DNA of 64,000 nucleotides from Alphaproteobacteria bacterium. Its GTDB lineage: Bacteria; Pseudomonadota; Alphaproteobacteria; UBA8366. Below the pieces are notes generated by a model. The model did not search any database. It was given only the letters and a program-made list of their open reading frames with translations, and was not told where the DNA came from. The DNA lies in the NCBI GenBank assembly GCA_009377445.1, contig WHUA01000004.1:215630-279629 (forward strand). Reading direction: 5' to 3'. A program made the position numbers and the translations under genes. Shown here piece by piece: positions 36,874 to 64,000 of this stretch (positions are counted from its first letter, which is position 1; the number at the start of each line of letters is the position of its first letter).

Positions 36874-36899
36874 ATTGAAATCCCTAGACATTCTGCTTT

Positions 36900-37220
36900 C
36901 TAGTCTTCCATGCTGAGGGGTTTCGCCGCATTTTTCGCCGCATCCAGCGTCACGTCAGCAAAAGCGCACGCTCCGCCGCCGCAAGAGCCTCCGAAGTGTC
37001 GGTCTTCATCGAACGCATACCCGTCGATGCGGTAGCCCGCATTCCTGATCCGCCCCTCCTGATAGAGATCGAACGTGTTCTCAAGATGACCAGCATCTTC
37101 GAGGCGCTCAAGCAGGAATCGCGTAAACACCTCCTCAGTGAATGGTGCTTCGTCTGACAGACCCGCTTCGATTTCATGCACGATATTGGCGGCAAACTGG
37201 TGGAGGGAATCATCACTCAT
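36900..37220 (-). pseudogene. AIPR-family (abortive-infection) protein, N-terminal ~75 codons only
   Basis: MSDDSLHQFAANIVHEIEAGLSDEAPFTEEVFTRFLLERLEDAGHLEN..YQEGRIRNAGYRIDGYAFDEDR matches the N-terminal pattern I recall for AIPR proteins (normally >500 aa). The tail after DEDR is unrelated. Confidence 0.5.
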
Positions 37221-38197
37221 GCAGAGTCCTGCCTGCAGAAAAGATCGAGGATGTCGGCAGAATCAGCGGACAGGCCGGATATGGTGCGAAGGTCCAGAGC
37301 GTAGCTGGCATCCGTAACTGCCGGCGGGACTGCTGATCTCGTGAGCCGGGGAAACAGATCATCAATCGTGTAGCCTGAGATCTCCCTGAGCTGAAATAGG
37401 GGCTGAGAGCGGGACGCCATATCGTCCGGCATGAGACCTCGTCGAAGCAGCGCATTTTCGAAGGACCGCCGCGCCATTTCATCGGGAAGCAGCACGGCGA
37501 TATTCGCGATCAGGCCCTCCATCGACCTGCCGTCGGGCGCCTCTATCAGGCGAACGTGGAGCAGGTCAAGTCTTCTCAAGCCCGTGGTCTCAAGCTGGTC
37601 GAGCGAAGATATCCGGATCGCTGATGCTGGTCCGAGGCTGGCCTTGACCTCAACAGCGTGACCATTTTGGACGAAGTCATGGAGGCCGTCATCCGGGGCT
37701 TTCCAGCTGTTCTGCGCAGCAGGGTTGATGGATACCAGTCTTTCCAGGATGAGTAGCTCGCCAATGAGACCTATCGTCTCCTCGCGGGAAAGGCGGCTGC
37801 GGCGCTCGCGGAGGAACCGGCGCCAGGCATCGAGACGCGCGAGAAAGTACGCCAGCTCGTTGCCTAGCTCTGCGAAGGTGGAAGCCGAGATCGCATCGCC
37901 ACAGAGCGTGGTAAAGAGGTCGATACGGGTGCCATCTTCCAGCGACAGAACCATCATTGGCCCTTGCTCGTTGGCAGTAACGCCAAGGCGCATGCCGCCG
38001 ACCTCAAACAGGGAATCCGGTTGAGCCTCTGCATCTATGAGGAGGCAGGGTGCGTCATCAACGGACCGGAGCGCTGCATAGGCATCCAGGGCAAGTTCGT
38101 ATGACAGACGCCGTGTCCGGAACTGCCTCGCCTGAGGCGGATGTTGCCCAAGCTCGGTCCAGGCCTCCTGGAGGGTGTCGTGCCAGAGCGAGCTCAT
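37217..38197 (-). CDS. PD-(D/E)XK motif protein (DUF4420-like nuclease)
   Basis: 326 aa, apparently intact. ...WKAPDDGLHDFVQNGHAVEVKASLG gives the D...E-V-K nuclease motif. ATGA overlaps with both neighbours. Confidence 0.65.
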   Translation of the reverse strand: MSSLWHDTLQEAWTELGQHPPQARQFRTRRLSYELALDAYAALRSVDDAPCLLIDAEAQPDSLFEVGGMRLGVTANEQGPMMVLSLEDGTRIDLFTTLCGDAISASTFAELGNELAYFLARLDAWRRFLRERRSRLSREETIGLIGELLILERLVSINPAAQNSWKAPDDGLHDFVQNGHAVEVKASLGPASAIRISSLDQLETTGLRRLDLLHVRLIEAPDGRSMEGLIANIAVLLPDEMARRSFENALLRRGLMPDDMASRSQPLFQLREISGYTIDDLFPRLTRSAVPPAVTDASYALDLRTISGLSADSADILDLFCRQDSA

Positions 38198-38690
38198 ACC
38201 TGCTGCTCCCTCTGGCGTACAGGGTTTTCAAGATAGGAGCGTCGCCGTGCATTTTTGCTGTCGGGGAAGCTCACCACTACGCCGACGACGGGCCTGTCCG
38301 TATCGGCATTACCGACCTCAGGATCGAGAGGATAGATGATCAGCAGACCATTCTGGGGGCGTTCACCTCTGATTGTCCGGATATTGGGGCCAGATGGCCG
38401 ATCAATTGGGTCCTTGCCAACCAACTGCCTTTCCTGGTTTGTCTGCTTCAGTGCCCTCTCGTACTCCTCATCACTCAGATCGATAGCTTCATCAAGTGGG
38501 CTCAGTATCGATCTGATAATGTAGCGCTCAGCAACATCCCTGTCGGTGCGAGGCGAACGCCGGACACATCTGAACGTCCTGCCGCCAAGATTTGCCTCCA
38601 TGCCGTCAGCCGTCGGGAGAAAGACCGTCCAGGCCGTCAGCTCTTTTTCCCTGATCCGCTCGCCAATATACTGCGCCAGCTTCGGCCCCT
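38194..38690 (-). pseudogene. C-terminal fragment of the upstream operon partner (slot normally held by a Z1-domain protein)
   Basis: ORF 38194..38757(-) 'starts' at a TTG inside integrase-derived sequence. ...RYIIRSILSPLDEAIDLSDEEYERAL...NGLLIIYPLDPE. The Z1 identity is inferred from operon position only. Confidence 0.35.
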
Positions 38691-38695
38691 CGATC

Positions 38696-38902
38696 TCAAG
38701 GTTCTCCGGCGGGAATGAAAGATTCAGGAGAAACTCGACAATGTCCTGTCCAGGCAAACGTCATGATCTCCTTCACGTTGAACCCTTGCTCGATCCAGAG
38801 AGAAACCGCGAAATAACGAAGGTCGTGCCAGCGCAGCTCGACCCCGAGTTCGCGACATAATGGCTTGAACCGCCTTTTGAGGACGGTGGTGTGCGCCCTC
38901 AC
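38696..38902 (-). pseudogene. tyrosine recombinase/integrase, C-terminal fragment
   Basis: ...LGVELRWHDLRYFAVSLWIEQGFNVKEIMTFA.. is the box II region (HDLRH-like) of Tyr recombinases. No N-terminal or catalytic R-box part is present. Confidence 0.6.
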
Positions 38903-38924
38903 CCGTCCCCACTTGTTCGGGAAA

Positions 38925-39149
38925 CCGATCGTTACCGAGGCTGCTCATCCATTCGGCGTGACAGGCGACACGGGCGCGCCGGGCTTCCGTTCGCAGCATG
39001 TGGTGGAAAAGGATATTGTGCGTAAACACGATGACCTGCCGCCCCTTTGCCGCTTCTTCGGCTAGACGTTCGGCAACGGCCTGCATGCGCGTAGGCTGTC
39101 CGCTCCAATGGGTAGAGGTTGGGTGGGTGCTTATCCATGAACCGATCAA
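38925..39149 (-). pseudogene. AAA/ABC-type ATPase fragment (defence-associated type)
   Basis: ...AVAERLAEEAAKGRQVIVFTHNILFHHML... resembles the Walker-B-distal 'QVIVFTHD' region of RloA/PrrC-like ATPases. About 70 codons only. Confidence 0.4.
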
Positions 39150-39258
39150 ACCAGGTAGATTAACCCTTGATGGCCTCCTCGGCCCTATGTAGCAAACAAG
39201 CTCCTCTCATCCACTAGCGTCGCCATTGGGATTGGACAGATCTGAAAGGCAGTTACCG

Positions 39259-40548
39259 ATGACCGAACCAGCAGACCTCGACGTAACTTCAGCGTCCATA
39301 CTGATGGAGAAGGGAAAGTTAACGGCGGAGGCTCTGATGGCTTCATGCCTCGCTCGCGTCGATAAGCGCGAGGACGCGGTACGGGCATGGGCTTATATCG
39401 ACGCTGATCTGGCGATGGCCGCTGCCCGTGCATGTGATCGCGAAACGCGGCGCGGGCCGCTGCATGGCATCCCCATTGGCGTCAAGGACATCGTCGATAC
39501 GTCTGACATGCCAACGACCTATGGCTCGCCCATCTACAACGGTAACCAGCCGGCTGCTGATGCCGCGTGTGTTGCGCTCGCACGAGAGGCAGGGGCCGTT
39601 ATCATGGGAAAGACGGTGTCGACTGAATTTGCCACGCGCCATCCTGGAAAGACCCGAAACCCGCACAACGCCGCGCATACGCCCGGCGGTTCGTCGAGTG
39701 GTTCAGCGGCCGCCGTTGCCGATCACATGGTTCCAGCAGCGTTCGGCACGCAGACAACAGGGTCGGTTATTCGGCCATCTGCCTATTGCGGCATTGTGGG
39801 ATACAAGCCGACATTCGGGAAAATCAACCGGACAGGGGTAAAGCCCCTGTCTGATACAATGGACACGGTCGGACTCCATGCCCGATCTGTCCCGGACATC
39901 GCCCTGATCCTTTCGGTGATTTCCGGACAGTCTTTCCCGGACCTCAAGGTTGTAGCCGAGGAAATGCGCCCCTGGCGCATTGGGATTTGCCGGACTCCAT
40001 ACTGGGACCGCGCCGACGCCGCAACTCATGCGCTCCTCGACCAGGTCGCGGACCGATTGGGGCGTGCTGGCTCTAAAGTCCGGGAGGTTGTTCTGCCAGA
40101 ACCATTTCCGGATGCATTTCATGCCCAAGACGTGATCAACGAGTTCGACACATGGCGGGCGCTCGCATTCGAACGAACACGCCATCCGGAAAAGCTATCA
40201 ACGACGTTGTCTGAGCGACTGGCCCGTGCGGGGCGGCGCAGTGCAGCTGAGTACACCGCTGCGCATAACCTTGCGACCAAGTGTCGCGGACTTGCCGATG
40301 AAATGTACTCGGAATGGGATGTTCTTGTCGTGCCTGCCGCGCCCGGGGAGGCGCCCAACGGATTGGGTTCCACGGGCGACCCAATCTTCAACCAGCTTTG
40401 GACTCTTTTACACGGCCCGGCGGTTACTATACCGGCTGGCCATGGCCCTTCGGGATTACCCTTAGGCATACAGTTGGTTGGCCCCCGCGGTCATGATTTG
40501 CGGGTGCTCGCTTGTGCGAACTGGGCCGCAGATTTTTTGGCATGTTGA
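39259..40548 (+). CDS. amidase (amidase-signature family), copy 1
   Basis: ORF 39226.. begins at a TTG. ATG 39259 gives MTEPADL. LHGIPIGVKD, GGSSSGSAAAVA, GTQTTGSVIRPSAYCGIVGYKPT (Ser-cisSer-Lys triad context). Confidence 0.85.
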   Translation: MTEPADLDVTSASILMEKGKLTAEALMASCLARVDKREDAVRAWAYIDADLAMAAARACDRETRRGPLHGIPIGVKDIVDTSDMPTTYGSPIYNGNQPAADAACVALAREAGAVIMGKTVSTEFATRHPGKTRNPHNAAHTPGGSSSGSAAAVADHMVPAAFGTQTTGSVIRPSAYCGIVGYKPTFGKINRTGVKPLSDTMDTVGLHARSVPDIALILSVISGQSFPDLKVVAEEMRPWRIGICRTPYWDRADAATHALLDQVADRLGRAGSKVREVVLPEPFPDAFHAQDVINEFDTWRALAFERTRHPEKLSTTLSERLARAGRRSAAEYTAAHNLATKCRGLADEMYSEWDVLVVPAAPGEAPNGLGSTGDPIFNQLWTLLHGPAVTIPAGHGPSGLPLGIQLVGPRGHDLRVLACANWAADFLAC

Positions 40549-40867
40549 TCCCCAAGCCGTAACATGAGAAGCCATTCCTCAGTCTGCGGGCGGCAAATTT
40601 GAAGATGTCTGCAAATTGGCTATAGTCGCTATTGCAAGCGCGCAATGACCTGCGCGCTGCCAGACGCCTTCCCGGCCTCCGAACCCGATTTCGGCTGCCG
40701 ACAATAATTAGCGCACTCCGGTGCCATAACGGATCTGGCATTTTCATCCGCCACGCTCTCGCGGGCGATAGTGGGTCTAAGAATTTGCAATTGTTGATGC
40801 CGACGGGCCACCGGCAGCTTTGGGGAGTTTGCAGTCTTGCGTTCACGTAGCAGCATAGTTCTGATTT

Positions 40868-41821
40868 ATGGCTAACTATATTCTCCGGCGCCTTCTGTAT
40901 GCGATTCCGATTGCGATCGGCGTCACGGTCATTTGCTTTTCCCTGATTTATCTCGGACCAAGCGACCCGATAGCGGCGGTCATGCCAGACGAAGCATCCG
41001 CCGCAGACGTCCAGCGGATTCGCGAGGCTTACGGGTTCGACAAGCCGGTGCCGGTCCAGTATGCGCTATGGCTGATGCGCGCGGTGCAAGGCGATTTCGG
41101 TAATTCGCTGCAATCCAACCGGCCTGTCCTCGATGAACTAATCCCGGCGCTCCAAAACACCTTGCGCCTTGCCGTCTTCGCCGCCGCGCTGAGTTTCGCG
41201 ATTGCCGTCGTCGTCGGCAGCGTGGCTGCCTATTCTCAGGGAACCTGGCTCGACAAAACAGTGACGTCGTTCGCAATCACGGGGGTCAGCGTGCCCCATT
41301 ATTGGGTGGCGATCATGCTGGTCATTGTTTTCGCTGTCGAGCTCGGATGGCTTCCGGCCATGGGCATGGGTACGGGCAGCTCGCGCGACTGGGCCTGGGA
41401 CGCTGAACACATGAAGGCGCTCATACTGCCGGTAATCTCGCTTTCTCTAATTCCAGCCGGAATCATCACGCGCACCACCCGCGCAAGCGTCCTTGAAGTG
41501 CTGAGCCACGATTACGTCGAGACGCTACGCGCGAAGGGGCTGTCGGAAGCGACGGTGCTGCGCCACGTCCTGAAGAACGCCTCGCCGACCGTGCTCGCGG
41601 TGACGGGACTTCAGTTCGGCCATCTGCTGGGAGGCTCTATCCTCATCGAAACGGTTTTTGTCTGGCCGGGTACGGGCTTTCTGCTCAATGAATCCATTTT
41701 CAAGCGCGATCTGCCAGTGCTGCAGGGCACGATTCTCGTCCTCGCCATGTTCTTTGTTTTCGTGAATCTTACAGTGGATATCATGCAGACTTGGCTTGAT
41801 CCCCGCATCAAGAGAGACTGA
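40868..41821 (+). CDS. ABC transporter permease (DppB/OppB-like)
   Basis: 317 aa. MANYILRRLLYAIPIAIGVT..., ...DYVETLRAKGLSE, typical of peptide/nickel-type permeases. Confidence 0.9.
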   Translation: MANYILRRLLYAIPIAIGVTVICFSLIYLGPSDPIAAVMPDEASAADVQRIREAYGFDKPVPVQYALWLMRAVQGDFGNSLQSNRPVLDELIPALQNTLRLAVFAAALSFAIAVVVGSVAAYSQGTWLDKTVTSFAITGVSVPHYWVAIMLVIVFAVELGWLPAMGMGTGSSRDWAWDAEHMKALILPVISLSLIPAGIITRTTRASVLEVLSHDYVETLRAKGLSEATVLRHVLKNASPTVLAVTGLQFGHLLGGSILIETVFVWPGTGFLLNESIFKRDLPVLQGTILVLAMFFVFVNLTVDIMQTWLDPRIKRD

Positions 41822-41823
41822 TT

Positions 41824-42759
41824 ATGGTAGATACCAAATCCGTCGCTTGGACCGATAGCATGTCAGCTGACAGTGTGGCGGCTGCACAGGCCGGGGAGAT
41901 TCCCATCGGTCAGCTTCGGTCGCGCGGGTACTGGCGCTCCGTTTGGGTGCGCTTGCGCCGTGACAAGGTTTCCGTTGCCTGCGCCGCCGTCCTCATTCTG
42001 ATTGCGCTATCGGCGATTTTCGCCCCCCTGCTGTCGCCGCACGACCCATATCAAGGAAACGTCGTCAAGCGCCTGGCGCCGATCGGCACAGCCGGCTACC
42101 TACTCGGCACCGACGAACTGGGCCGCGATATGCTCTCTCGCTTGCTCTACGGCGGGCGCGTATCGCTCTTCATCGGGCTTTTCCCTGTCTTCTGCGCGCT
42201 CATTGTTGGCGGTACAGCCGGCATCGCCGCCGGTTTCATCGGAGGCCGGACCAACATGGCGATCATGCGCCTTATGGACGTTTTCTATGCGTTCCCGTCC
42301 ATCCTCCTGGCGATTGCGATTTCTGGTGCGCTGGGCGGCGGCTTCTCTAATGTCATCCTGGCACTGGCGCTGATCCTGGTTCCGCCGATCACGCGCGTCG
42401 CCGAAAGTGTGACGACCCAGGTTCGCAGTTACGACTTTGTGGAAGCTGCGCGGGCCAGCGGTGCTGGGACATGGACGATCATCCGTGTGCATGTGCTCAG
42501 CAACGTCCTTGGACCGATATTCATTTATACGACAAGTCTTATAAGCTTCAGCATCATCGTCGCCTCGGGCCTCAGCTTCCTCGGCCTCGGCGTCACGCCC
42601 CCGACGGCAGACTGGGGACTGATGCTGAGCACGCTACGCCAAGCGATCTGGATCAACCCTTATGCCGCGGCTCTTCCAGGTTTGATGATCTTCGTCACGT
42701 CCCTTTCCTTCAATCTGCTCAGCGACGGGCTGCGCAGCGCGATGGATGTGAGACTATGA
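41824..42759 (+). CDS. ABC transporter permease (DppC/OppC-like)
   Basis: 311 aa. ...LLGTDELGRDMLSRLLYG..., ...FVEAARASGAG. Confidence 0.9.
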   Translation: MVDTKSVAWTDSMSADSVAAAQAGEIPIGQLRSRGYWRSVWVRLRRDKVSVACAAVLILIALSAIFAPLLSPHDPYQGNVVKRLAPIGTAGYLLGTDELGRDMLSRLLYGGRVSLFIGLFPVFCALIVGGTAGIAAGFIGGRTNMAIMRLMDVFYAFPSILLAIAISGALGGGFSNVILALALILVPPITRVAESVTTQVRSYDFVEAARASGAGTWTIIRVHVLSNVLGPIFIYTTSLISFSIIVASGLSFLGLGVTPPTADWGLMLSTLRQAIWINPYAAALPGLMIFVTSLSFNLLSDGLRSAMDVRL

Positions 42760-43856
42760 GTGATTGCAGAAAGAACATTCGCCGCGAGCCCGTAACAACC
42801 TGCCCGCCGGCGCCGACGGAGAGCCAACCTTTATTATCTGTGAAGGGGCTGCGCAAATACTTCCCAGTAAAGGGAGGGCTTCTCAAACGGCAGATCGCCG
42901 CCATACAAGCAGTCGACGACGTGTCCTTCGAGGTCCGGCGGGGTGAGGTGCTGGGAATCGTCGGTGAATCCGGGTGTGGCAAGTCGACCACGGCCCGGCT
43001 CCTGATGCGGCTTATCGAACCGGACGCCGGGCAAGTGATCTTTGATGGCAAGGAGGTCGGCATGCGCGACGGCATGACAGTCACCGACCTGCGGCGTCAC
43101 GCTCAGATGGTGTTCCAAGACTCCTATTCCTCGCTCAATCCACGCCTTCCTGTGGAGGATACGATCGCCTTTGGCCCCGTGGTCCACGGCACAGCCAGAA
43201 GCAAGGCGAAGGAACGCGCGCGGTATCTCCTGAACGAAGTCGGGCTAGACCCATCTCGGTTTGGCAGGCGCTACCCGCACGAACTTTCGGGCGGTCAGCG
43301 TCAGCGCATCAACATTGCACGCGCGCTGGCGCTGCAGCCACAGATGGTCTTCCTGGACGAGGCCGTGTCCGCATTGGATAAGTCGGTGGAAGCGCAGGTA
43401 CTCAATCTCCTGCTTGATTTGCGGGAGGAATTCAATCTGACCTACGTCTTCATATCCCACGACCTCAACGTGGTTCAATACATCAGTGATCGCGTGCTTG
43501 TGATGTACCTCGGCAAGGTCGTGGAGGTCGGTCCTATTGGTGATGTGTATAAGGAACCGGCGCATCCCTACACCCACGCGCTGCTGTCTTCCCGTCCGTC
43601 GATGGACCCGGAGGACCGCAAAAAAGAGTCGCCGTTGTCTGGCGATCCGCCGACGCCGATCAATCCGCCGTCGGGCTGCCGCTTCAGAACCCGATGTGCA
43701 TTTGCCGAAGACGTGTGCGCAAGAGCCGTTCCCGCACTCACGCCGATTCGCGCCGACGGCAGTTGGCTGGCGGCCTGTCACATGATTATTCCCGGCTCGG
43801 GCCACAGCAGGGCTGCTGCCATTAATGAGGCAACGACCGGAGGCACGAATGGCTGA
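42756..43856 (+). CDS. ABC transporter ATP-binding protein (DppF/OppF-like)
   Basis: In frame in ORF 42471..43856. ATG 42756 overlaps the permease stop. GESGCGKST, LSGGQRQRINIARAL, C-terminal PPSGCRFRTRC. Confidence 0.9.
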   Translation: MSDCRKNIRREPVTTCPPAPTESQPLLSVKGLRKYFPVKGGLLKRQIAAIQAVDDVSFEVRRGEVLGIVGESGCGKSTTARLLMRLIEPDAGQVIFDGKEVGMRDGMTVTDLRRHAQMVFQDSYSSLNPRLPVEDTIAFGPVVHGTARSKAKERARYLLNEVGLDPSRFGRRYPHELSGGQRQRINIARALALQPQMVFLDEAVSALDKSVEAQVLNLLLDLREEFNLTYVFISHDLNVVQYISDRVLVMYLGKVVEVGPIGDVYKEPAHPYTHALLSSRPSMDPEDRKKESPLSGDPPTPINPPSGCRFRTRCAFAEDVCARAVPALTPIRADGSWLAACHMIIPGSGHSRAAAINEATTGGTNG

Positions 43857-44880: not shown

Positions 44881-44986
44881 TGTAAACCGGAACCACGCTT
44901 AGTACAGATTCCAAAGACGTATTGTTTGTACCGCTGTCCACGGAGTTTATGGAGTTCGCCCGCGCGAACGGAAAAGGATATCTGAA

Positions 44987-55715: not shown

Positions 55716-56195
55716 CTATGGGAGATGCTCGATGTGAAGGTCGAATTTCCCGCGCATCAGCAGTGGGGCGATGTCACCGTCGATCCGGCCCAGGCGGATC
55801 AGTCCGCTGGAGTAGCGGTAGCTCCCGTAGAAGAAAGCTAGGTTTCCCCACGGCGCGTAGTAAGCGAGGTCGCCCGGCGCCTCGTTGTCGAAGGGGCCGC
55901 TGCCTTCTTCGGTCAGCTTGCGCGGCAGGTAAGCGATTTTCTCATTGGTAGAATAATCGTCGATGGTGAAATCGAGCGGCAGCATGGAAGCAAAATCGCG
56001 CGCCAAGGGATTGTCGTAGAGCGTAGCGGTCATGCTCGCCCCATTGAACTCGATACGTATCTTCATACCCGTTTCGTCCTGATTGGGCGCGGCGTGCTGC
56101 GGCGTCTGCCCGAATGCGAGTTGCGTCATGAGCGCGCTGACGACCATCGCCCCGAGAGCCACTCGGCGGCTTGGTGTGGTACCTTGAGATTTCAT
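55716..56195 (-). CDS. secreted cyclophilin-like fold protein
   Basis: 159 aa. Signal peptide. ...MTATLYDNPLARDFASMLPLDFTIDDYSTNEKIAYLP...GDLAYYAPWGNLAFFY, the pattern of the 'cyclophilin-like' family. Confidence 0.6.
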   Translation of the reverse strand: MKSQGTTPSRRVALGAMVVSALMTQLAFGQTPQHAAPNQDETGMKIRIEFNGASMTATLYDNPLARDFASMLPLDFTIDDYSTNEKIAYLPRKLTEEGSGPFDNEAPGDLAYYAPWGNLAFFYGSYRYSSGLIRLGRIDGDIAPLLMRGKFDLHIEHLP

Positions 56196-56228
56196 GTCAC
56201 GATACTCGACCGACGCGCATCGTTTCGC

Positions 56229-58340
56229 TCAAAGCAGCTTGTCCGGCGTGACCGGTAGCTCGCGGATGCGCTTGCCGGTGGCATGAAAGATGGCGTTGGT
56301 GATGGCCGGGGCGACGCCCACCATGGCGATCTCGCCGACGCCTTTCACGCCGAGCGGGTTCACGTGTGGGTCGTGCTCCTCCACAAAGATTACGTCCATG
56401 ACCGGCGGGGCGTCGGCGTGGACCGGCACCGCGTATTCGGCGAAGTTGGCGTTTGAGACCCGCCCGTTGCGGCCGTCCACCACGGAATGCTCCATGAGTG
56501 CCATGCCGATACCGCCGATCATGCCGCCGACGCACTGGCTGCGCGCCAACTTCGGGTTGACGATGCGCCCGGCCCCATAAGCGCCGACGATGCGCCGCAC
56601 GCGCGTCTCCCCGAGGTCCGGATCGACGGCGACTTCCACGAATACGGCGCCGAAGGCGTGCATTGAGAACCGTTGCGATTCATCGCCCGGCGTTGAGTCT
56701 ACTGAGGCCTCGACAGGCTGGCCGATGCGACGCATCGCCTCCGTAACATCGTTGGTGCCACCGCCGCGTGCGAGCGCGTCCTCGCGCGCCTTGCGGCAGG
56801 CAGCCTGCACCGCGCTGCCGACGCTTGCCATCGTTATCGAGCCGCCGTGCACGGGCGCTCTCGGCAGCCGGGTGTCACCGAGAGTGAACCTCACCCGTTC
56901 GATCGGCAAGCCGAGCGTCTCGGCCGCGACCTGTGTCATCGACGTCCAGGTGCCTGGTCCCATGTCGCTTGCGGCGCTCGCAACTTCCGCGGTGCCATCG
57001 GGCAGAAGGCGCGCCATAGCCGAGGCGGGTGCGCGACCCGCGCCGTAGGTGGCGGTTGCCATGCCCCAGCCGATCAACTGGCGACCATCGCGCATGGAGC
57101 GCGGCTCGGAATTGCGCCGGCTCCAGCCGAAGCGCTCGGCGGCCGCCTGGTAGCATTCCCGGGTCGATCTGCTGGAGAACGGAAGCTGCCTGAACTCGTC
57201 CTGTTCTGGTTCATTGCGCAGGCGCAGTTCGACAGGATCAATATTCAGTGCAACAGCAAGTTCGTCCATCGCCGATTCGATCGCGAAGATGCCGCTCGCC
57301 TCACCAGGCCCGCGCATGTAGGTCGGCGTATGCACATTCATGGGCGCGAGCCGATGGCGCGTGTTGACGTTTGGGCACGAATGCAGAAACCCGGTCGCGT
57401 TCAGGAGCGCCTCCGTGAATTCCTCATAGGTGGAGGTCTCCTGGTCGCCATTGTGCAGGATGGCGCCGAGGCGGCCGTCACGCGATGCGCCGAGGGCGAC
57501 ACGCTGGACCGTATGCGGGCGAAAGCCCGTGCCGTAGTACATCTCGCGCCGTGACAGCATGATCTTAACCGGCCGCCCGGCGACACGCGCGCCGAGCGCC
57601 GCTAGCGTTACATGTGGCCAGGTGCGCAGAGCCGAACCGAAGGCGCCGCCGACGAACGGCGAGATGACCCGCACGTTCCGCGCCGGGATGCCGAACACGG
57701 CGGCGATCTCGTCGGCCACGTTATGCACCCACTGCGTCTTGTCCCACAGCGTCAGACTATCGCCATCCCAGGACGCGATCGTGGCGTGCATCTCAATGGG
57801 ATTATGGTTCTCGCGCGGGATCACGTAGGTCTGGCCGAGCTTGACCTCGGCGGCTGCGAGCGCTCCATCGGGGTCGCCGCGCCGCGTCTCCGATGGCGGT
57901 GTCAGCGGGACCGGCTCGGCGCGGGCAATGTCGGTGATCGCGGCTTCGGGCGCGTAGGTGACGCGCACCAACATCGCCGCGTGGACCGCCTGTTCGAGCC
58001 CTTCGGCGATGACGAGGGCGACGGGCTGGCCTTGATGACTCACCCGATCGGCCTGAAGCACGTGCAGACGCTCACCGATGCCTGGGTCGGGAGCGCCCTT
58101 GTGTGCGCGGTAGGCGAGCTTCGGCGCATTTTGGTGCGTCAAGACGGCAATGACACCAGGCGCCTGCTGCGCAGCCGAACTGTCGATTGAAGCAATACGG
58201 CCGTTCGCCACCGTGCTCCGGACGATAGCGCCGTGCACCAAGCCCGGCGCCTGAAACTCGGCGACATAAGTAGCGGCGCCGGTGACCTTCCGCCGGCCAT
58301 CGACACGGCTGATGGGCTGTCCGATCAAAGCGGTGGTCAT
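56229..58340 (-). CDS. xanthine dehydrogenase-family molybdopterin-binding subunit
   Basis: 703 aa. ...GQPISRVDGRRKVTGAATY..., ...GGFG.. and C-terminal ...GVGEIAMVGVAPAITNAIFHATGKRIRELP. Confidence 0.9.
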   Translation of the reverse strand: MTTALIGQPISRVDGRRKVTGAATYVAEFQAPGLVHGAIVRSTVANGRIASIDSSAAQQAPGVIAVLTHQNAPKLAYRAHKGAPDPGIGERLHVLQADRVSHQGQPVALVIAEGLEQAVHAAMLVRVTYAPEAAITDIARAEPVPLTPPSETRRGDPDGALAAAEVKLGQTYVIPRENHNPIEMHATIASWDGDSLTLWDKTQWVHNVADEIAAVFGIPARNVRVISPFVGGAFGSALRTWPHVTLAALGARVAGRPVKIMLSRREMYYGTGFRPHTVQRVALGASRDGRLGAILHNGDQETSTYEEFTEALLNATGFLHSCPNVNTRHRLAPMNVHTPTYMRGPGEASGIFAIESAMDELAVALNIDPVELRLRNEPEQDEFRQLPFSSRSTRECYQAAAERFGWSRRNSEPRSMRDGRQLIGWGMATATYGAGRAPASAMARLLPDGTAEVASAASDMGPGTWTSMTQVAAETLGLPIERVRFTLGDTRLPRAPVHGGSITMASVGSAVQAACRKAREDALARGGGTNDVTEAMRRIGQPVEASVDSTPGDESQRFSMHAFGAVFVEVAVDPDLGETRVRRIVGAYGAGRIVNPKLARSQCVGGMIGGIGMALMEHSVVDGRNGRVSNANFAEYAVPVHADAPPVMDVIFVEEHDPHVNPLGVKGVGEIAMVGVAPAITNAIFHATGKRIRELPVTPDKLL

Positions 58341-59335
58341 GCGCGAGCTCCCGCGATTTCGACGGCACGCACGATGGCGCGCTGCATGAGTTCGATCTTG
58401 AAGTCGTTGTGCCCGCGGCCATGCGCGTTCTCTGCGGCGAGTGCCGCCGCCTGGCGGAGCGATTGCGGTTCGAGGCTGGCCCCGGCCAGGGCTGCCTCGA
58501 CGCGGGGCACGCGCCAGGGCTTGGTTCCGACGCCCCCGAGGGCGATGCGCGCCTGCCGGATGCGGGCGCCGTCCATCTCAAGCGCCACCGCCGCCGAGAC
58601 GACCGCGAACTCGAAGGAGGCCCGATCGCGCACCTTGAGATAATGCGAGCGTCGCGCCGCCGAGCTGGCCGGCACCGTGATGGCGGCGATCACCTCTCCT
58701 GGCTCAAGCACCGTCTCGATGTGCGGAGTGGCGGCTGGCAGGCGATGGAAGTCGACGAGCGGCAAGGAACGGCTGCCGCCAGCCCCGCGTATCTCGACGG
58801 CTGCATCAAGTGCGACCAGCGCCACCGCAAGGTCCGAAGGGTTGGTGGCGATACAGTCGTCGCTCGTGCCGAGCACGGCATGCCAGCGGTTCTCACCGCC
58901 AATAGCCGCGCAGCCGGAGCCCGGTGCGCGCTTGTTGCAGGCGGCATAGCCGACATCGCGAAAATACGGACAGCGGGTGCGCTGCAGGAGATTGCCGCCC
59001 ATGGTCGCCTGGTTGCGCACCTGCGGGCTTGCCGAGTTAAGCAGTGCCTCGGAGATGAGAGGAAATTGCTCAACCACAGCCGGGTCGGCGGCCACTTCCG
59101 CCATCGTGGCGGCGACACCGAGCCGGAGGCCCTGTGGTCCAATCTCGATGCGGTTGTCGAGAAGACCCGCGAGGCTGACCAACCGCTCGGGCTGGCGCAC
59201 GTATTCTTGCAGGAGCTGCACCATGTCGGTGCCGCCGGCTATATATTCGGCTGGTGCGTCATTGCGGCCGGCCTGCGCGCGCAAGGCGAGCGCGGCGGCA
59301 AGGTCACGCGGACGATCAAGAGTGAACGGGTGCAT
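58337..59335 (-). CDS. xanthine dehydrogenase-family FAD-binding subunit
   Basis: 332 aa. ...YIAGGTDMVQLL... Overlaps the large-subunit start. Confidence 0.9.
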   Translation of the reverse strand: MHPFTLDRPRDLAAALALRAQAGRNDAPAEYIAGGTDMVQLLQEYVRQPERLVSLAGLLDNRIEIGPQGLRLGVAATMAEVAADPAVVEQFPLISEALLNSASPQVRNQATMGGNLLQRTRCPYFRDVGYAACNKRAPGSGCAAIGGENRWHAVLGTSDDCIATNPSDLAVALVALDAAVEIRGAGGSRSLPLVDFHRLPAATPHIETVLEPGEVIAAITVPASSAARRSHYLKVRDRASFEFAVVSAAVALEMDGARIRQARIALGGVGTKPWRVPRVEAALAGASLEPQSLRQAAALAAENAHGRGHNDFKIELMQRAIVRAVEIAGARA

Positions 59336-59338
59336 GGC

Positions 59339-59938
59339 TCAACCTCCCCGCGCAGGACCGGTGGCGCCAGCCGCGTCCTGGATCGCCGCGACGATGTGAT
59401 CATAGGCTCCGCAGCGGCACAGGTTGCCGCTCATCCAGTCACGGATCTCCTGCGGCGAGCCGGCATGGCCCTCTGCAATGCAGGCGACGCCGGCCATGAT
59501 CTGCCCGGACGTGCAATAGCCGCACTGGAAGGCGTCGCGCTCGATGAAGGCGGCTTGCAGTGGATGAAGTTGATCGCCCTGCGCCAAGCCTTCGATAGTC
59601 GTTATCTCGCGCCCCTCCACGAGGGCGGCGAGCGAGAGGCAGGATTTCACGCCCTTGCCGTCCATCCGGACCGTGCAGGCGCCGCATTGACCAAGGCCGC
59701 AGCCTTTCTTCGAGCCGGTCAGATGCAGATGCTCGCGCAGGGCATCGAGCAACGTGGTCCGTGGATCGAGCGTCAGCCGATGCTCGGTCCCGTTGACCCG
59801 GAGCACGAGGTCGAGCGGAGCGGGCCGGGCGTCCGCGGCTTGCGCGGCAGCCTCCGGGATGAACCCAGGCATGAGCTGCCCTCCCACCAAGGCACCGCCA
59901 GTGACCACGGCCACTTCCATAAGCTCGCGCCGGGTCAT
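59339..59938 (-). CDS. (2Fe-2S)-binding small subunit with Tat-like signal
   Basis: ORF 59339..59986(-). Likely start MTRRELMEVAVVTGGAL (ATG 59938). CGLGQCGACTV and QCGYCTSGQ clusters. Confidence 0.9.
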   Translation of the reverse strand: MTRRELMEVAVVTGGALVGGQLMPGFIPEAAAQAADARPAPLDLVLRVNGTEHRLTLDPRTTLLDALREHLHLTGSKKGCGLGQCGACTVRMDGKGVKSCLSLAALVEGREITTIEGLAQGDQLHPLQAAFIERDAFQCGYCTSGQIMAGVACIAEGHAGSPQEIRDWMSGNLCRCGAYDHIVAAIQDAAGATGPARGG

Positions 59939-60068
59939 ATCGAACCCGGTGAGCCTCAGGTTTCCTGAGCTTGAAGACTCTTCCATATGTGGCGCTCACT
60001 TAGCGAGCAGACGCAAAGCATGCCGTCCGATTGAAGAGTGCGCATCCTCCCCAACTACCGCCAAAAAT

Positions 60069-60425
60069 CATGGAGAGTATGAGCAGAATCCAAAAACGCG
60101 GCGCGGCCTCAGAAGTTCCTCAGGCTTTTGCCGCCGTCGCGCGAGAACTCGGTTTCACGAAAGCCGCAAAGCTGGGCCTCTCCTGGCGGCACTAAGCCAT
60201 ACGATCAAGAACGCAAAGCGGCGGAGGATTCCGCTCCTTAGCCGCGCGACGCGGAGCGTCTCGCCAGAGGGCGCAACCCGTCTGGTACCCAACACAGGAC
60301 ATGCTTCGACGAGATCGAGGCGGTGGTCGCCGCAGTCAGTGAGCTTCGGGAGAAGCCTGCCTCACGCCACCAGGCAAGATCAATCGACTACTTTTGCTGA
60401 ACAAAGATCGCCTTTGATACGCGGC
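60069..60425 (+). pseudogene. LysR-family regulator, frameshifted N-terminal fragment
   Basis: ATG 60069 (GGAGAG SD): ...QAFAAVARELGFTKAAKLGLS. Other frames give LAALSHTIKN...IPLLSRATRSVSPEG and FDEIEAVVAAVSELREKPA. At least 2 frameshifts. It ends at the IS630-like end. Confidence 0.55.
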
Positions 60426-60429
60426 TCTG

Positions 60430-60735
60430 TCCCATTTCACTTCACAGCACTACCCCTTCACTCCCACTCGATCGTTTCTAAGCATCATAACTCACTGAAT
60501 TTTAAGCGCGAAATTTCTCCGCTGACGGTCTAGAGCGTCGTGCAATTAATCTGCAACATATCCAGCGTCCTTGAGGTAGTTCCAGCATTCGTCGGGTGAG
60601 TAGAGGTTGCAGATTGAGCCGACGGCTTTCCAGAGGGCGTCGATGGTGCGGGCCTTTGCCTTTCGCAAGTGTGCCTTGAGCTTGGCGAAGGCCATTTCGA
60701 TGGGGTTCAGATCGGGGCTGTAGGGCGGCAGGAAC
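60430..60735 (-). mobile_element. IS630-family element right end: transposase C-terminal 63 codons (60546-60735) plus end sequence
   Basis: Own translation of the minus strand: FLPPYSPDLNPIEMAFAKLKAHLRKAKARTIDALWKAVGSICNLYSPDECWNYLKDAGYVAD*, the DDE third-acidic region of IS630/Tc1-like transposases. Confidence 0.7.
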
Positions 60736-60736
60736 C

Positions 60737-61280
60737 TGCGGCAACGACCGGACGATCGGACGCCGGGAGATCGAGGCGCGAGTGCTGGAGGGGCTCAAGG
60801 TGCGGCTCATGGCGCCGGCGCTGGTCCAGGCCTTCATCGATGAATACCACGCGGAGATCAACCGCGCCGCCCGCGACACGGAGCATGCACAACGCCGGCT
60901 GCGGCGCGAGCGCGCGGACATCGAGCGCAAGATCGAGAGCATCCTCCGTGCCGTCGAGGACGGCTTCTACAATGCCTCCCTCAAGGACCGCCTCTCGGGC
61001 CTGGAACGGCGCCGCGATGAGATCGACAGGGTGCTGGCGGAAGACACGACGCCCGCCGTCCGCCTGCATCCCGGCCTGGGCAGGATCTATCGCGACCGGG
61101 TCGCCCGCCTCGAGACGGCGCTGACGGCGGAAGACACGGCGGCGGAGGCCGGCGACATCCTTCGCCTCCTCATCGACCGCGTCGAGCTCCGCCCACGCGA
61201 TAGGGAAGGTGGTCTCGATATCATGCTGTTCGGCGATCTCGCGGCGATCCTGTCGCTCTGTGAAGCCGCGGAGCACAAAG
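60737..61280 (+). pseudogene. large serine recombinase, C-terminal fragment
   Basis: ...CGNDRTIGRREIEARVLEGLKVRLMAPALVQAFIDEYHAEINR...coiled-coil...LHPGLGRIYRDRVARLETAL...LRLLIDRVELRP matches the zinc-ribbon-distal/coiled-coil part. The catalytic N-terminus is absent. Confidence 0.6.
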
Positions 61281-61285
61281 ACGAA

Positions 61286-61311
61286 CTCCCCGGAAGGGAC
61301 CTTCCGGGGAG
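61286..61311 (-). terminator. 12-bp perfect hairpin just 3' of the tRNA-fMet relic
   Basis: ctccccggaagg-ga-ccttccggggag. On the minus strand it lies 11 nt after the relic's CCA and is followed by gttcgtctttgtg. Confidence 0.45.
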
Positions 61312-61322
61312 TCAACTGTCAG

Positions 61323-61366
61323 TGGCTGCGGGGGCAGAATTTGAACCTGCGCCTTCAGGTTATGAG
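61323..61366 (-). pseudogene. tRNA-Met(CAU, initiator-like) 3' half relic (anticodon loop to CCA)
   Basis: Minus strand: CTCATAA-CCTGA-AGGC-GCAGG-TTCAAAT-TCTGC-CCCCGCA-G-CCA parallels the initiator tRNA 3' half. No matching 5' acceptor or D arm upstream. Confidence 0.6.
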
Positions 61367-61628
61367 GTTTACAGCAACAGCAATCAAGCTGCCAGAGCAA
61401 CGCCATCGAAACGGAGTTTCAACGCGACTACGTGCTCGAAGCGTTCGGTTCGAACTGTATCCAGGAAGGCCAGCCACTATCCCCGAATACGCTCGTTTAC
61501 GCCCCAAGCGCCTTTGGCAGCTTCCCTACCGGATGGCGACGCGGCATAGCTTCGAACATGGTCCCGTCTTGCTATTTGGGATCGAGACGGGTTATCTTAC
61601 TTCTATCTTACCACGTTGAGGCTACCCT

Positions 61629-61910
61629 ATGCCCGCCAAGCGGAAACTGACGACCACCGTTTCGACCAAAGGCCAAGTCATCCTGCCCAAGGCGATTCGA
61701 GAGCAGCGCCACTGGTCGGCCGGCACGGAGCTTGTCGTGGAAGACACACCCGACGGGGTTCTGTTGAAGGCAAGGCCCGCATTCGCGCCCACGAGGCCGA
61801 AGGATGTGTTTGGATCGCTATCCTATAAAGGATCGGCAAAATCGATGGCGGAGATGAGGGCGGGAATCGCCGTCGAGGCGAAACGGCGGCATGCTCGCAA
61901 TCGATACTAA
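61629..61910 (+). CDS. vapB: AbrB/MazE/SpoVT-family antitoxin (VapB-like)
   Basis: 93 aa. ...TTVSTKGQVILPKAIREQRHWSAGTELVVEDTPDGVLLK (SpoVT-AbrB swapped-hairpin motif). 20-nt overlap with vapC. Confidence 0.8.
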   Translation: MPAKRKLTTTVSTKGQVILPKAIREQRHWSAGTELVVEDTPDGVLLKARPAFAPTRPKDVFGSLSYKGSAKSMAEMRAGIAVEAKRRHARNRY

Positions 61911-62280
61911 CCTTATCGTCCGCTATCTGGTGAACGACGATCCCGGACAAGCCGCCCGGGCGCGCAAACTGATCGACAACAATGATGTCTTCGTCTGCAC
62001 CACGGTCATATTGGAGACCGAATGGGTGCTGCGCAGCGTCTATGGATTCTCCGTTGCCCAATGCGCAAAAGCTCTTACCGATTTCGCGGGATTGCCGCGC
62101 GTGACCCTGGAAGATGCCGCTTGCGTTGCAAAGGCTTTGGGTTGGGTGCGGGAGAGGGTGGACTTCGCGGATGGCCTGCACCTGGCAAAAGCGGAAGGCT
62201 GCGACGCCTTCATCAGCTTCGACCAGAACTTCGCCAAAACCGTCAACGCCCTCGGGGGTATCAAGGTTCGCACGCCCTGA
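61891..62280 (+). CDS. vapC: PIN-domain toxin VapC
   Basis: 129 aa. MLAIDTNLIVRYLVNDD (first acidic D), ...ILETEWVL..., ...FISFDQNFA. Confidence 0.85.
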   Translation: MLAIDTNLIVRYLVNDDPGQAARARKLIDNNDVFVCTTVILETEWVLRSVYGFSVAQCAKALTDFAGLPRVTLEDAACVAKALGWVRERVDFADGLHLAKAEGCDAFISFDQNFAKTVNALGGIKVRTP

Positions 62281-62314
62281 AACAAGGTATTGCTATCGAC
62301 CGCACGGGCCTAGC

Positions 62315-63109
62315 TCACGGCTTCGCGCTCTCGCTCTGACTCCGGAACGCCTTCTCTCCGGCGTCCGACACCTCGACCCACTTCTTGTCGGGCGCTGCGC
62401 CTGCGACGTAGCTGTCGTGCCAGTTCCACCACTTGTAGGTCGGGGTCTGAGGATAGCCCTCGGGCGAATCCTCCCAGACCTCCTGCCGGCCCAGTGGCGT
62501 GATGTCGAGGTAGTTCCACGTGCTCCCCATCTGCTCGTCGCCACGGTTGTTGATGAAGTAGGTGCGGAACACGCGGTCGCCGTCGCGGTAGAACACGTTC
62601 GTGCCGTGCCACTCGTCCACGCCGAAGTCGGCGTCGAAGCTGTCCGTGATGGTGAACCACGGCATCTCCCAGCCCATCCGCGCCTTCAGCCGCGCGATGT
62701 CCGCCTGAGGCGCACGCGAGACGAAGACGAGGGTGGTGTCGCGGGCGTTCAGGTGGGCGACGTGGGCGACCTGGTCGGCCACCATGGAGCAGCCCCGGCA
62801 GGCGTGGTCGGGCCAGCCGAACACCCCCGGCTCGAAGAAGGCGCGGTAGACGATCAGCTGACGCCGGCCGTCGAACAGGTCGAGCAGGCTGGCCTTGCCC
62901 GCAGGCCCCTCGAACGCATACGCCGTCTCTACGGCCATCCACGGCATTCGCCTGCGCTCGGCGGCCAGGGCGTCACGGGCGCGGGTTTGGGCCTTTTCCT
63001 TCACGAGCTGCTGCTTGTGGGCCGCCTCCCACGCCTGCGGCGAAACGACCGGTGGTGTGTGCATGGCAGGCTGTCCGCCTTTCCGTCCGTTCTCGGCTGA
63101 TGCAGTCAT
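62315..63109 (-). CDS. DUF899 (thioredoxin-like) domain protein
   Basis: 264 aa. ...WEAAHKQQLVKEKAQTRARDALAAERRRMPW...CRGCSMVADQV...WFTITDSFDADFGV..., as I recall for DUF899. GGAGG SD. Confidence 0.75.
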   Translation of the reverse strand: MTASAENGRKGGQPAMHTPPVVSPQAWEAAHKQQLVKEKAQTRARDALAAERRRMPWMAVETAYAFEGPAGKASLLDLFDGRRQLIVYRAFFEPGVFGWPDHACRGCSMVADQVAHVAHLNARDTTLVFVSRAPQADIARLKARMGWEMPWFTITDSFDADFGVDEWHGTNVFYRDGDRVFRTYFINNRGDEQMGSTWNYLDITPLGRQEVWEDSPEGYPQTPTYKWWNWHDSYVAGAAPDKKWVEVSDAGEKAFRSQSESAKP

Positions 63110-63245
63110 GGCTTTTGAAACCTCCTAATTTGGGTCAATTCCCGCGCCTCGAGGCTGAAGCGCGATTCCATTCCCTGCTCATTAAACGTGTCGGCCGTGA
63201 GATTGTTCTGGCATAGTCCACCGCTCGATCCCGCGATGGTTCGCC

Positions 63246-63683
63246 TTACCCGCGGGCAGCGGCCTCGGCCAAGGAAATCGCTCTATCGCGAAGCCGGCTC
63301 CGCCGGTTCTGACGGAGCTTGCGCAGAAAGCGCTCGTCGGACGTGACGAACGAACAATCGTTCGCCACCGCCAAGGCAAGGTACAGGCAGTCATAGGCGG
63401 AATGGTCGAGCGCAATGGCGATGCGAGCCGCCTCTTCAAGCAATGATCGCGTTGGCAGCAGCTCGATATCAGCGCCTTGGAGCAAACGGGCGGCGAGAAA
63501 GGCTTCCTCTTTTAAAAGCTCGTCTCGTTGAACCTTTTTCCAAAGCACGTTCGCGCATTCCGCCACCAGCAGGTCGGGCGCGATCAGCTTGGCCCGCTGT
63601 CGTAGCGTCAGCGCCTCCGGTGTGCCTTCTTCCTCGACCACCCATTTGATGGCGATGCTGGCGTCCATGACGAGCGTCTTCAC
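63246..63683 (-). CDS. PIN-domain toxin (VapC/FitB-like)
   Basis: 145 aa. VMDASIAIKWVVEEE..., ...AYDCLYLALA..., ...FVTSDERF. GTG start overlapping the antitoxin stop. Confidence 0.8.
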   Translation of the reverse strand: MKTLVMDASIAIKWVVEEEGTPEALTLRQRAKLIAPDLLVAECANVLWKKVQRDELLKEEAFLAARLLQGADIELLPTRSLLEEAARIAIALDHSAYDCLYLALAVANDCSFVTSDERFLRKLRQNRRSRLRDRAISLAEAAARG

Positions 63684-63919
63684 CGCTCCTCGCGTCCTTC
63701 GCGGAGGAGGACTTCCGACGGCGTCTGCCGCCGGCGCTTCGTCAACTTCCGCAATTCGGCGGCCAACGTATCGAAGGAAGGTTCCACGTCAGCAGCAAGG
63801 GCCTGCCGCAGGATTTCCCGGTGCTCGGCCTCGGTCGAACGCCCGTGCCGGGCGGCGCGGCGCTTCAACCGGGCAATCAGATCGTCGTCCAGATTGCGCA
63901 CATGCAGATTGCCAGCCAT
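63680..63919 (-). CDS. ribbon-helix-helix antitoxin (FitA/Arc-like)
   Basis: 79 aa. MAGNLHVRNLDDDLIARLKRRAARHGRSTEAEHREILRQAL is a classic RHH N-terminus. Confidence 0.8.
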   Translation of the reverse strand: MAGNLHVRNLDDDLIARLKRRAARHGRSTEAEHREILRQALAADVEPSFDTLAAELRKLTKRRRQTPSEVLLREGREER

Positions 63920-64000
63920 CCGACCCTTCCACTTGAGACCAATGATAGCAATGATCTCAAATGGAGGTTATTTTGTCAATCTCCGCCATGGCCCCAACAA

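Follow-up and report, generated by a model that had tools for sequence, protein, structure and literature searches.

The region downstream of tRNA-Gln(CUG) and its borders

The window analysed here is a 64,000-nt stretch of contig WHUA01000004.1, a 310-kb contig (locus tag GEU87_) from the metagenome-assembled genome (MAG) of an uncultured soil alphaproteobacterium. Its sole tRNA gene by ARAGORN is tRNA-Gln(CUG) (anticodon CTG in the DNA) at 36800-36873 on the plus strand (Rfam tRNA, 64.3 bits), the left anchor of a patchwork of gene fragments and intact modules. We consider it likely that the patchwork, from 36874 to ∼64005, is a ∼27-kb degenerate composite genomic island between this tRNA gene and an acyl-CoA synthetase gene. 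tRNA genes were called with ARAGORN and Rfam (cut-off E ≤ 1), protein families were assigned with Pfam, NCBIfam, PADLOC and PHROGs, and relics of mobility genes were also sought by tblastn and pairwise comparison.

Upstream of tRNA-Gln lie dus, guaA, guaB, rlmE/ftsJ and the genes for a Ppx/GppA phosphatase and an EF-hand protein. Relatives of this left flank were collected with the Ppx protein from species-representative genomes and metagenomes. The closest genome, L001 (an uncultured alphaproteobacterium; Ppx 80% amino acid identity), is collinear with the window over 25237-36873, and homology ends at 36873, the last base of tRNA-Gln; tblastx against the window found nothing window-like in the 9.2 kb past the L001 tRNA. 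The original prediction had placed the end of conserved synteny exactly at the tRNA 3′ end and described the DNA beyond as less GC-rich and patchy, and both statements held. GC content is 0.666 in the core before the tRNA and 0.613 in the island after it; in 2-kb steps it is 0.58-0.60 at 37-44 kb, reaches 0.66-0.67 at 56-60 kb and then drops again. In agreement, core chunks of 2 kb lie at a tetranucleotide L1 distance of 0.196 ± 0.021 (maximum 0.248) from the core profile and island chunks at 0.27-0.42 (3-10 standard deviations above core), with the exception of 55-58 kb (0.23-0.27). The shift in composition is abrupt and coincides with the 3′ end of tRNA-Gln.

For the right flank, relatives were collected via acyl-CoA synthetase homologues, and sequence past 64 kb came from Logan contig L006 (run SRR10173838; +2.2 kb) and a relative of 95% identity from another sample, L018 (ERR1883824). 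L006 is 100% identical to 63144-64000 and runs on for 2232 nt, in which the minus strand encodes a 725-aa ADP-forming acyl-CoA synthetase with core-like composition (GC 0.678; GC at third codon positions (GC3) 0.89; tetranucleotide distance 0.185). In three relatives with 84-87% nucleotide identity in this gene (L019, L020 and L021), homology to the window is lost at 64005-64010, the 3′ end of the gene, and each continues with different DNA. Because the synthetase gene is core-like and synteny is lost at this point in all three, the right border lies at ∼64005-64010, 5-10 bases past the window. L018 is collinear through the FitAB genes into the DUF899 gene, where its contig ends; its identity is 93-96% over 62622-64000 (at least 1.4 kb shared) compared with 97.4% in the synthetase gene. 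The right end of the island is older than the split from this ∼95%-identical strain and has been vertically inherited since.

A second copy of the tRNA-Gln 3′ end, which the original prediction had looked for without success, was not found in the window with up to three mismatches. Nor did a copy appear when the search was extended downstream to 66232: the best local alignment over 36874-66232 scored 14, within the range of shuffled queries (12-17). The prediction had therefore left the right attachment (att) site, attR, either beyond 64 kb or lost. A site not far beyond 64 kb is contradicted by a right border at ∼64005-64010 that carries no repeat, and the other half of that statement stands, in that attR was lost or never existed.

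The tRNA-Gln gene stands beside ppx also in five metagenome contigs (Ppx 63-83% identity); with L001 and the window, these make seven genomes with seven different sequences after the CCA. The tRNA itself is 100% identical among L001, L008, L010 and L011, and the first ∼160 nt after it are common only to L001 and L011. Since six relatives each carry different DNA after tRNA-Gln, the locus has been repeatedly remodelled and is a hotspot. An empty site, with tRNA-Gln beside the acyl-CoA synthetase gene, was not found among the six left-flank and three right-flank relatives, each of which has other DNA there. Alignment to relatives, proposed earlier as a way to both the empty site and the right border, yielded only the border.

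Two of these relatives carry features of their own at tRNA-Gln. In L010, the first ORF (open reading frame) matches the C-terminal end of a 'recombinase family protein' (tblastn 1e-13; 45-542 nt from the tRNA-Gln start) and runs antisense into tRNA-Gln, which suggests a further decayed serine-recombinase element at this tRNA. Its upstream part seems degenerate, and the next gene encodes a universal stress protein. L001 has an 8.55-kb segment of GC 0.605 between 240-nt imperfect repeats (78% identity) that start at the tRNA terminal CAGCCA; in flipped coordinates counted from the start of tRNA-Gln, they occupy 69-309 and 8626-8864 nt. The segment encodes a GNAT protein, a frameshifted dimethylglycine-dehydrogenase-like protein, a phosphodiesterase and a glycosyltransferase. 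It may represent an island without an integrase, or its repeats may be a conserved att-like or small RNA sequence.

Defence remnants and relics of mobility genes

The gene next to tRNA-Gln is not an integrase, as had been predicted, and no integrase, intact or pseudogene, adjoins the tRNA. The first gene is instead a truncated AIPR gene (AIPR/MzaE′; 36900-37220, minus strand; Pfam AIPR_N 2.7e-7, 31.2 bits, profile positions 1-44/151). Its homology is limited to 36999-37127, the gene being 3′-truncated and the tail of the ORF unrelated sequence. It is followed on the same strand by an intact gene for MzaD, a DUF4420 protein of the PD-(D/E)XK type (37217-38197; Pfam DUF4420 1.3e-59, 2-305/306; PADLOC MzaD 4.4e-24), and by the Z1-domain gene MzaC′ (38194-38757; PADLOC MzaC 9.5e-9, 752-940/952; tblastn to Z1 proteins up to 2e-52), which is 5′-truncated to the last ∼190 of ∼950 residues. 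A short internal or C-terminal piece of an AAA ATPase gene, a PDC-S06-like defence candidate, lies further on (38922-39149, minus strand; PADLOC PDC-S06 1.1e-10, 662-703/858; tblastn 3e-20).

The mzaABCDE genes have been cited as a validated defence system (PMC9523054), and islands with Z1, DUF4420 and Dcm genes have been described before (PMC5379612). An intact reference on a Rhizobium plasmid has the order vsr-dcm-ATPase-Z1 (921 aa)-PD-(D/E)XK. Like these Dcm-associated Z1-DUF4420-AIPR systems, the window has MzaC, MzaD and MzaE homologues in canonical order on one strand, but it lacks the methyltransferase, Vsr, the ATPase, ∼80% of the Z1 protein and most of the AIPR protein; the complete Mza gene set, including dcm and the Mza ATPase, is not present in the window. 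Since MzaD is the sole intact gene of the operon and the other components are lost, the tRNA-proximal module is a gutted Mza-type defence operon that cannot function. No homologue of MzaD above 72%, besides itself, was found among 5.8 billion proteins, which we count as a sign of horizontal transfer, and the Mza module may be younger or rarer.

Between the Z1 and ATPase fragments, 1.8 kb into the island, lies the first mobility relic, a tyrosine integrase fragment that spans the box II region (38699-38944, minus strand; tblastn 1e-15, 46% amino acid identity; phrog_1 3.5e-5) and corresponds to about residues 280-362 of a 384-aa integrase. Its best tblastn match is a site-specific integrase on plasmid AZO_p2 of Azospirillum lipoferum 4B (79% nucleotide identity over 81 nt). 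The fragment is joined to both neighbours by deletion fusions, integrase′/Z1′ near 38.72-38.76 kb and ATPase′/integrase′ near 38.93 kb. The second relic is the N-terminal fragment of an IS110-family transposase gene (IS, insertion sequence) at ∼50650-50884 on the minus strand (tblastn to IS110 transposases 1e-11 to 7e-13); tblastn with this fragment hit 85 plasmid records, and those that are annotated are IS110 family transposases.

The remaining relics concern IS630 and a serine recombinase. A ∼70-nt sequence occurs as two direct copies on the plus strand, copy A at 54482-54550, a putative solo IS630-type end, and copy B at 60407-60476, 71-140 nt past the stop codon of an IS630 transposase fragment. 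The repeat is real (Smith-Waterman score 43 against a shuffled null of 16.8 ± 2.2, maximum 27; 22-nt core with 86% identity), and its position suggests the IS terminus that the original prediction had taken it for. The transposase fragment is the C-terminus of an IS630-family (DDE_3) enzyme, comprising the last ∼63 codons (60549-60737, minus strand; Pfam DDE_3 2.5e-7, 111-145/146). A full IS630 is not present: DDE_3 is incomplete, and the end region has no inverted partner, only the direct copy at 54482-54550.

Adjoining it on the opposite strand is the C-terminal third of a large serine recombinase, the part after the zinc ribbon (60737-61320, plus strand; BLASTP E 2e-30 to residues 340-521 of an IMG/VR reference recombinase on contig L026, an intact 549-aa enzyme with Resolvase, Recombinase and Zn_ribbon_recom domains). 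The fragment matches the phrog_95 integrase family (2.3e-8), and its database homologues carry PF13408; Pfam and NCBIfam gave no match, and a PDB sequence search gave only coiled-coil noise. It lacks the catalytic N-terminal resolvase domain, in place of which the upstream sequence is the IS630 fragment, and it is a relic, not a gene. The two fragments meet head-on at 60737/8 and both are cut internally; therefore, this junction can only be the product of a deletion.

Antisense to the recombinase gene and abutting its 3′ end is the 3′ half of a tRNA-fMet, from the anticodon loop to the CCA (61323-61366, minus strand). It matches positions 33-77 of Escherichia coli tRNA-fMet at 39/45 positions and is 93% identical over 45 nt to the attR half-tRNA of a prophage in A. 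lipoferum 4B. Rfam did not report the half-tRNA at E ≤ 1, and direct alignment confirmed it. From this similarity, the half-tRNA is best read as an att scar. The annotated gene GEU87_10005 (255 aa, 'hypothetical protein') corresponds to ORF 60782-61549, in which the recombinase fragment is read on across the antisense half-tRNA and a 180-nt spacer, and is thus an artefact of annotation.

Thus, the six mobility relics that had been listed for this region all exist at or near the positions given, and none is intact. Pfam searches of six-frame pseudo-proteins found no match for the integrase, IS110 and serine-recombinase fragments, and NCBIfam likewise; these three are detectable only by tblastn, PHROGs and pairwise comparison. 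In agreement with the earlier claim that no intact recombinase remains, none was found in the island, nor an intact transposase (all sizeable ORFs were scanned, and each unassigned gap is <600 nt).

A tRNA-fMet junction shared with Azospirillum

Three of the relics have adjacent counterparts on AZO_p2. On that plasmid, a tRNA-Met(CAT) gene (16719-16795) lies downstream of tRNA-Ile and tRNA-Ala and thus apparently closes an rRNA operon. The prophage, which encodes capsid, portal and terminase proteins, ends in a tyrosine integrase gene (30344-31498), and a 47-nt tRNA-fMet 3′ half at 31900-31946 forms attR. The C-terminal fossil of a serine recombinase has its 3′ end overlapping this half-tRNA in antisense. 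The window homologues of this junction share 79% nucleotide identity in the integrase C-terminus, 93% nucleotide identity in the tRNA-fMet half (45 nt) and 44% amino acid identity in the recombinase C-terminus. The original prediction had counted six independent relics; their independence fails here, as the integrase, half-tRNA and serine recombinase fragments are homologous to three adjacent pieces of one attR junction. To judge by these homologies, the three are parts of one recurrent kind of junction. The junction suggests that the elements behind the integrase fragment and the att scar targeted tRNA-fMet rather than tRNA-Gln.

On AZO_p2, the order of tRNA, new element, old 3′ half and old element is that of tandem accretion at the tRNA-fMet that ends an rRNA operon, and the window holds all three junction pieces. 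It differs from the plasmid in that the integrase piece is 22 kb off, across cargo genes, a full tRNA-fMet and the body of the prophage are missing, and the remnants are lodged by tRNA-Gln. This 22-kb distance, with the integrase piece on the left of the half-tRNA, means that one or more additional rearrangements separate the window from the Azospirillum order. We also considered 38.7-61.4 kb as one integrated element whose order is a circular permutation of the Azospirillum junction; this is unproven, the Azospirillum recombinase fossil lying outside the tyrosine prophage (in tandem) and an extra rearrangement being needed anyway.

The same overlap of recombinase and half-tRNA is found in L023, an ENA contig, and on the IMG/VR contig with the intact enzyme. 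Altogether, a recombinase gene whose 3′ end overlaps a tRNA-fMet 3′ half by 21-48 nt in antisense was seen in five independent sequences, one with the intact 549-aa enzyme (window 60737-61366; L007 7901-8587; L023 6001-6903; L026 1-1654; L028). The P0006, Azospirillum, L026 and L028 proteins share the C-terminal motif '...VAGAGFEPA(T/A)FRL', which we read as antisense translation of the tRNA T-arm; the tails of P0002 and P0005 come from the same T-arm stretch in another frame.

We tentatively propose, giving it somewhat less than an even chance, that the junction at 60.7-61.4 kb is a scar left by large serine recombinases that form a distinct clade and integrate into tRNA 3′ ends, and that 38.7-61.4 kb represents eroded tRNA-fMet-specific elements, one of the serine and one of the tyrosine type, stranded at tRNA-Gln. 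The targets of the clade would be tRNA-fMet in the window, Azospirillum, L023 and L026, and tRNA-Gln for a more distant relative in L010. As the last ∼14 codons of the recombinase are encoded on the strand opposite the tRNA 3′ half, the recombinase gene itself would contain attP. Reviews assign tRNA 3′ ends to tyrosine recombinases and state that site-specific serine recombinases usually insert in and disrupt protein-coding genes (PMC5704250). Among tRNA-integrated phage-related sequences of Sinorhizobium meliloti, all integrases but one are tyrosine enzymes, and the exception resembles a tyrosine integrase as well as a serine recombinase (PMC11476347). The association of the recombinase with tRNA-fMet is the only part of our results that might be less expected from this literature. 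If true, tRNA-fMet-linked serine recombinases could be of interest when recombinases are mined for genome engineering, as their target would be short and universally conserved.

P0002 and P0005 (L023 6001-6903) are recombinase-derived ORFs of ∼300 aa with a zinc ribbon and a coiled coil and no catalytic domain. They are 68% identical and share their starting residue, with non-coding DNA upstream of the L023 copy, and might represent a conserved short form, not random decay. Two sequences are too few to argue for a domesticated short form.

Proposed assembly and fixation of the island

The island would consist of at least five or six modules of differing composition and origin: the gutted Mza operon, a low-GC amidase/ABC-transporter operon, a junkyard of gene fragments, a cluster of genes for a short-chain dehydrogenase/reductase (SDR) and a molybdenum (Mo) hydroxylase, and two PIN toxin-antitoxin (TA) pairs with a DUF899 gene. 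Each module junction bears a fragment of a mobile element, namely the tyrosine integrase, IS110, IS630 (with its possible solo end) and the serine recombinase with the tRNA-fMet half. We infer that the modules came horizontally, via integrative elements and IS activity, and that recombinases, att sites and parts of the cargo were later lost through internal deletions; the order and number of these events are likewise inferred. Cargo that was useful (the three-amidase/ABC-transporter operon, the Mo-hydroxylase cluster and the TA pairs) would have been kept, and the TA pairs probably help the island to persist. Since no intact recombinase or transposase and no flanking repeat is left, the block would no longer be able to excise or transpose and would now be vertically inherited as fixed accessory DNA.

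In most respects this resembles known tRNA-associated islands, including decayed or 'anchored' ones and cis-mobilizable elements (CIMEs). Such islands likewise start at a tRNA 3′ end, deviate in composition, carry mosaic cargo for metabolism, defence and TA functions along with IS and integrase remnants, and occupy a tRNA that is filled by different DNA in relatives. Unlike them, the window has no repeat of the tRNA 3′ end, no tRNA-adjacent integrase, even as a pseudogene, and no recombination module, and its integrase fragment is of a tRNA-fMet-specific prophage lineage. The island itself is of a known kind, one more tRNA-adjacent hotspot gathering and then fossilising foreign DNA. It is a fairly clean example of decay, with a recombinase or transposase fragment at each junction, a defence operon reduced to one intact gene, and intact cargo retained. 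In genome annotation, it is best labelled a non-mobile island containing pseudogenes.

Several observations weigh against reading the region as a composite island at this tRNA. The att repeat of tRNA-Gln is absent from 36874-66232, and the integrase and att scar that can be identified belong to tRNA-fMet-specific elements. The lack of an empty site in relatives leaves a single filled interval unproven. The 55-58 kb cluster and the DUF899 gene have near-core composition and could be old or native. Finally, the source is a MAG, and the join to the ppx side, across a 74-nt tRNA that is identical in several related taxa, rests on one contig. The original prediction had explained the region by successive insertions at one hotspot, followed by deletions that immobilised a mosaic whose mobility genes had all decayed. 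The mosaic, the decay and the deletions are borne out, the last by the fragments fused at 60737/8, 38.72-38.76 and 38.93 kb, and so is the variability of the locus; integration into tRNA-Gln is unsupported, and nothing shows site-specific integration into this tRNA here. Successive insertions are indistinguishable in this window from the arrival of a ready-made mosaic.

Such a mosaic could have been built elsewhere, on a plasmid or chromid or at the tRNA-fMet locus of a donor, and have arrived once; the relics would then predate the arrival and be silent on any reuse of tRNA-Gln. The relics do reproduce the rRNA-operon-terminal tRNA-fMet junction of an Azospirillum plasmid, the window contains neither a full tRNA-fMet nor an rRNA gene (ARAGORN, Rfam), and alphaproteobacterial plasmids provide the best matches, in DNA and protein, to cargo and relics. 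We nevertheless regard a single arrival as somewhat unlikely, as the relatives show independent, different insertions at tRNA-Gln, the modules differ strongly in GC content (0.58 to 0.66), and a right end (62.6-64 kb) in common with L018 next to an MzaD without a close copy hints at parts of different ages.

It is also unlikely, in our estimate, that the region is an ordinary lineage-specific variable region, shaped by IS rearrangement, homologous recombination and deletion, in which the tRNA is a mere conserved landmark. The missing attR, tRNA-adjacent integrase and tRNA-Gln-specific recombinase would fit this explanation, as would a right flank that is also variable in relatives, with no tRNA there. 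Alignments would stop at the end of a conserved tRNA followed by an unconserved spacer in any case. Against it, composition changes abruptly where the tRNA ends, the region contains relics of site-specific recombinases and a half-tRNA att scar, and in L010 a serine recombinase C-terminus overlaps tRNA-Gln itself.

An assembly or binning artefact, in which the core of one population was joined to the island of another across the shared tRNA, is very unlikely. In its favour are the MAG origin of the sequence, a tRNA with 100% identity among four relatives and an independent Logan contig from the same sample (L022) that breaks inside the tRNA. Against it, the signatures of the far and near flanks agree (tetranucleotide distance 0.185 for the acyl-CoA synthetase gene, matching 0.196 ± 0.021 for the left core), L022, which was assembled independently and is 100% identical, connects the island with no fewer than 27 nt of the tRNA-Gln 3′ end, and read pairs normally bridge a repeat of 74 nt in a contig of 310 kb.

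Cargo modules

Behind the defence remnants, an intact low-GC operon occupies 39226-50050 on the plus strand. It encodes, in order, an amidase, two Opp/Dpp-type permeases, two ATPases, a second amidase, a family-5 solute-binding protein and a third amidase (Pfam; L022 gene calls). NCBIfam describes the amidases as generic or AtzE-like, below cut-off. A 102-nt direct repeat with 72% identity (45518-45619 and 49148-49249), between the second and third amidase genes, reflects amidase paralogy and is not a mobile repeat.

The stretch at 50.1-54.5 kb is made up largely of gene fragments. It begins on the plus strand with a weakly supported C-terminal fragment of a RidA/L-PSP gene (50157-50285; Pfam Ribonuc_L-PSP 1.3e-3, 19.1 bits against a gathering threshold (GA) of 27.3, 71-100/121). 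Immediately after the IS110 fragment comes an internal piece of an FMN-dependent NADH-azoreductase gene, AzoR′ (50885-51070, plus strand; Pfam Flavodoxin_2 1.8e-16, 78-142/198; NCBIfam 3.6e-11, 93-150/208). The next gene encodes an AlbA_2/Schlafen-like protein (51033-52361, plus strand; Pfam SLFN_AlbA_2 26-88/118 from residue 33; phrog_38563 35-146/464) and is probably 5′-truncated, without the first ∼25-35 family positions. After a hypothetical ORF follows the C-terminal half of a dihydropyrimidinase/hydantoinase gene (52926-53693, plus strand; NCBIfam dihydropyrimidinase 7.3e-111, 236-477/478). The last gene, on the minus strand, encodes a small, apparently complete HD_4 (RelA/SpoT-type HD) protein (53934-54488; Pfam HD_4 3.8e-24, 3-127/156). 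Its ATG lies inside repeat copy A (54482-54488), and the gene may be 5′-truncated, with its start supplied by inserted sequence.

The Mo-hydroxylase cluster (54876-59986, minus strand) comprises genes for an SDR, a cyclophilin-like protein and a PaoC-like molybdenum hydroxylase with its FAD and 2Fe-2S subunits (Pfam; NCBIfam PaoC-like 626 bits, below cut-off). Over 3.6 kb, it shares 79% nucleotide identity with a 1.4-Mb megaplasmid of S. meliloti, a further sign of horizontal transfer. This is much closer than these taxa predict, yet the composition of the cluster is near-native (tetranucleotide distance 0.171). Beyond it is a weakly supported N-terminal HTH fragment, apparently of a divergent LysR-type regulator gene, frameshifted and 3′-truncated (60070-60284, plus strand; Pfam HTH_1 1.8e-4, 21.8 bits, below GA, a score obtained after joining two frames by hand).

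The original prediction had counted at least eight truncated cargo genes in the island. Five are firm (AIPR/MzaE′, Z1/MzaC′, the AAA ATPase fragment, AzoR′ and the dihydropyrimidinase), AlbA_2′ is supported to a moderate degree, and RidA′ and LysR′ are weak.

To the right of the tRNA-fMet half, the island contains a VapBC-type pair (MazE/AbrB-fold antitoxin and PIN toxin; 61629-62280, plus strand; Pfam) and a gene for a thioredoxin-like DUF899 protein (62315-63109, minus strand; Pfam DUF899 3.4e-81), which has a core-like codon composition (GC3 0.89) and lies in a region shared with L018 at 94.9% nucleotide identity. A FitAB-type pair (RHH antitoxin and PIN toxin, RHH being ribbon-helix-helix; 63246-63919, minus strand; Pfam) provides the last island genes before the right border.

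On the core side of tRNA-Gln, a 72-nt periodic repeat in three copies and 30-nt tandem repeats at 36395-36658 lie in and just upstream of the EF-hand gene that adjoins the tRNA; they match the repeated EF-hand units and the repetitive N-terminal region of the protein.

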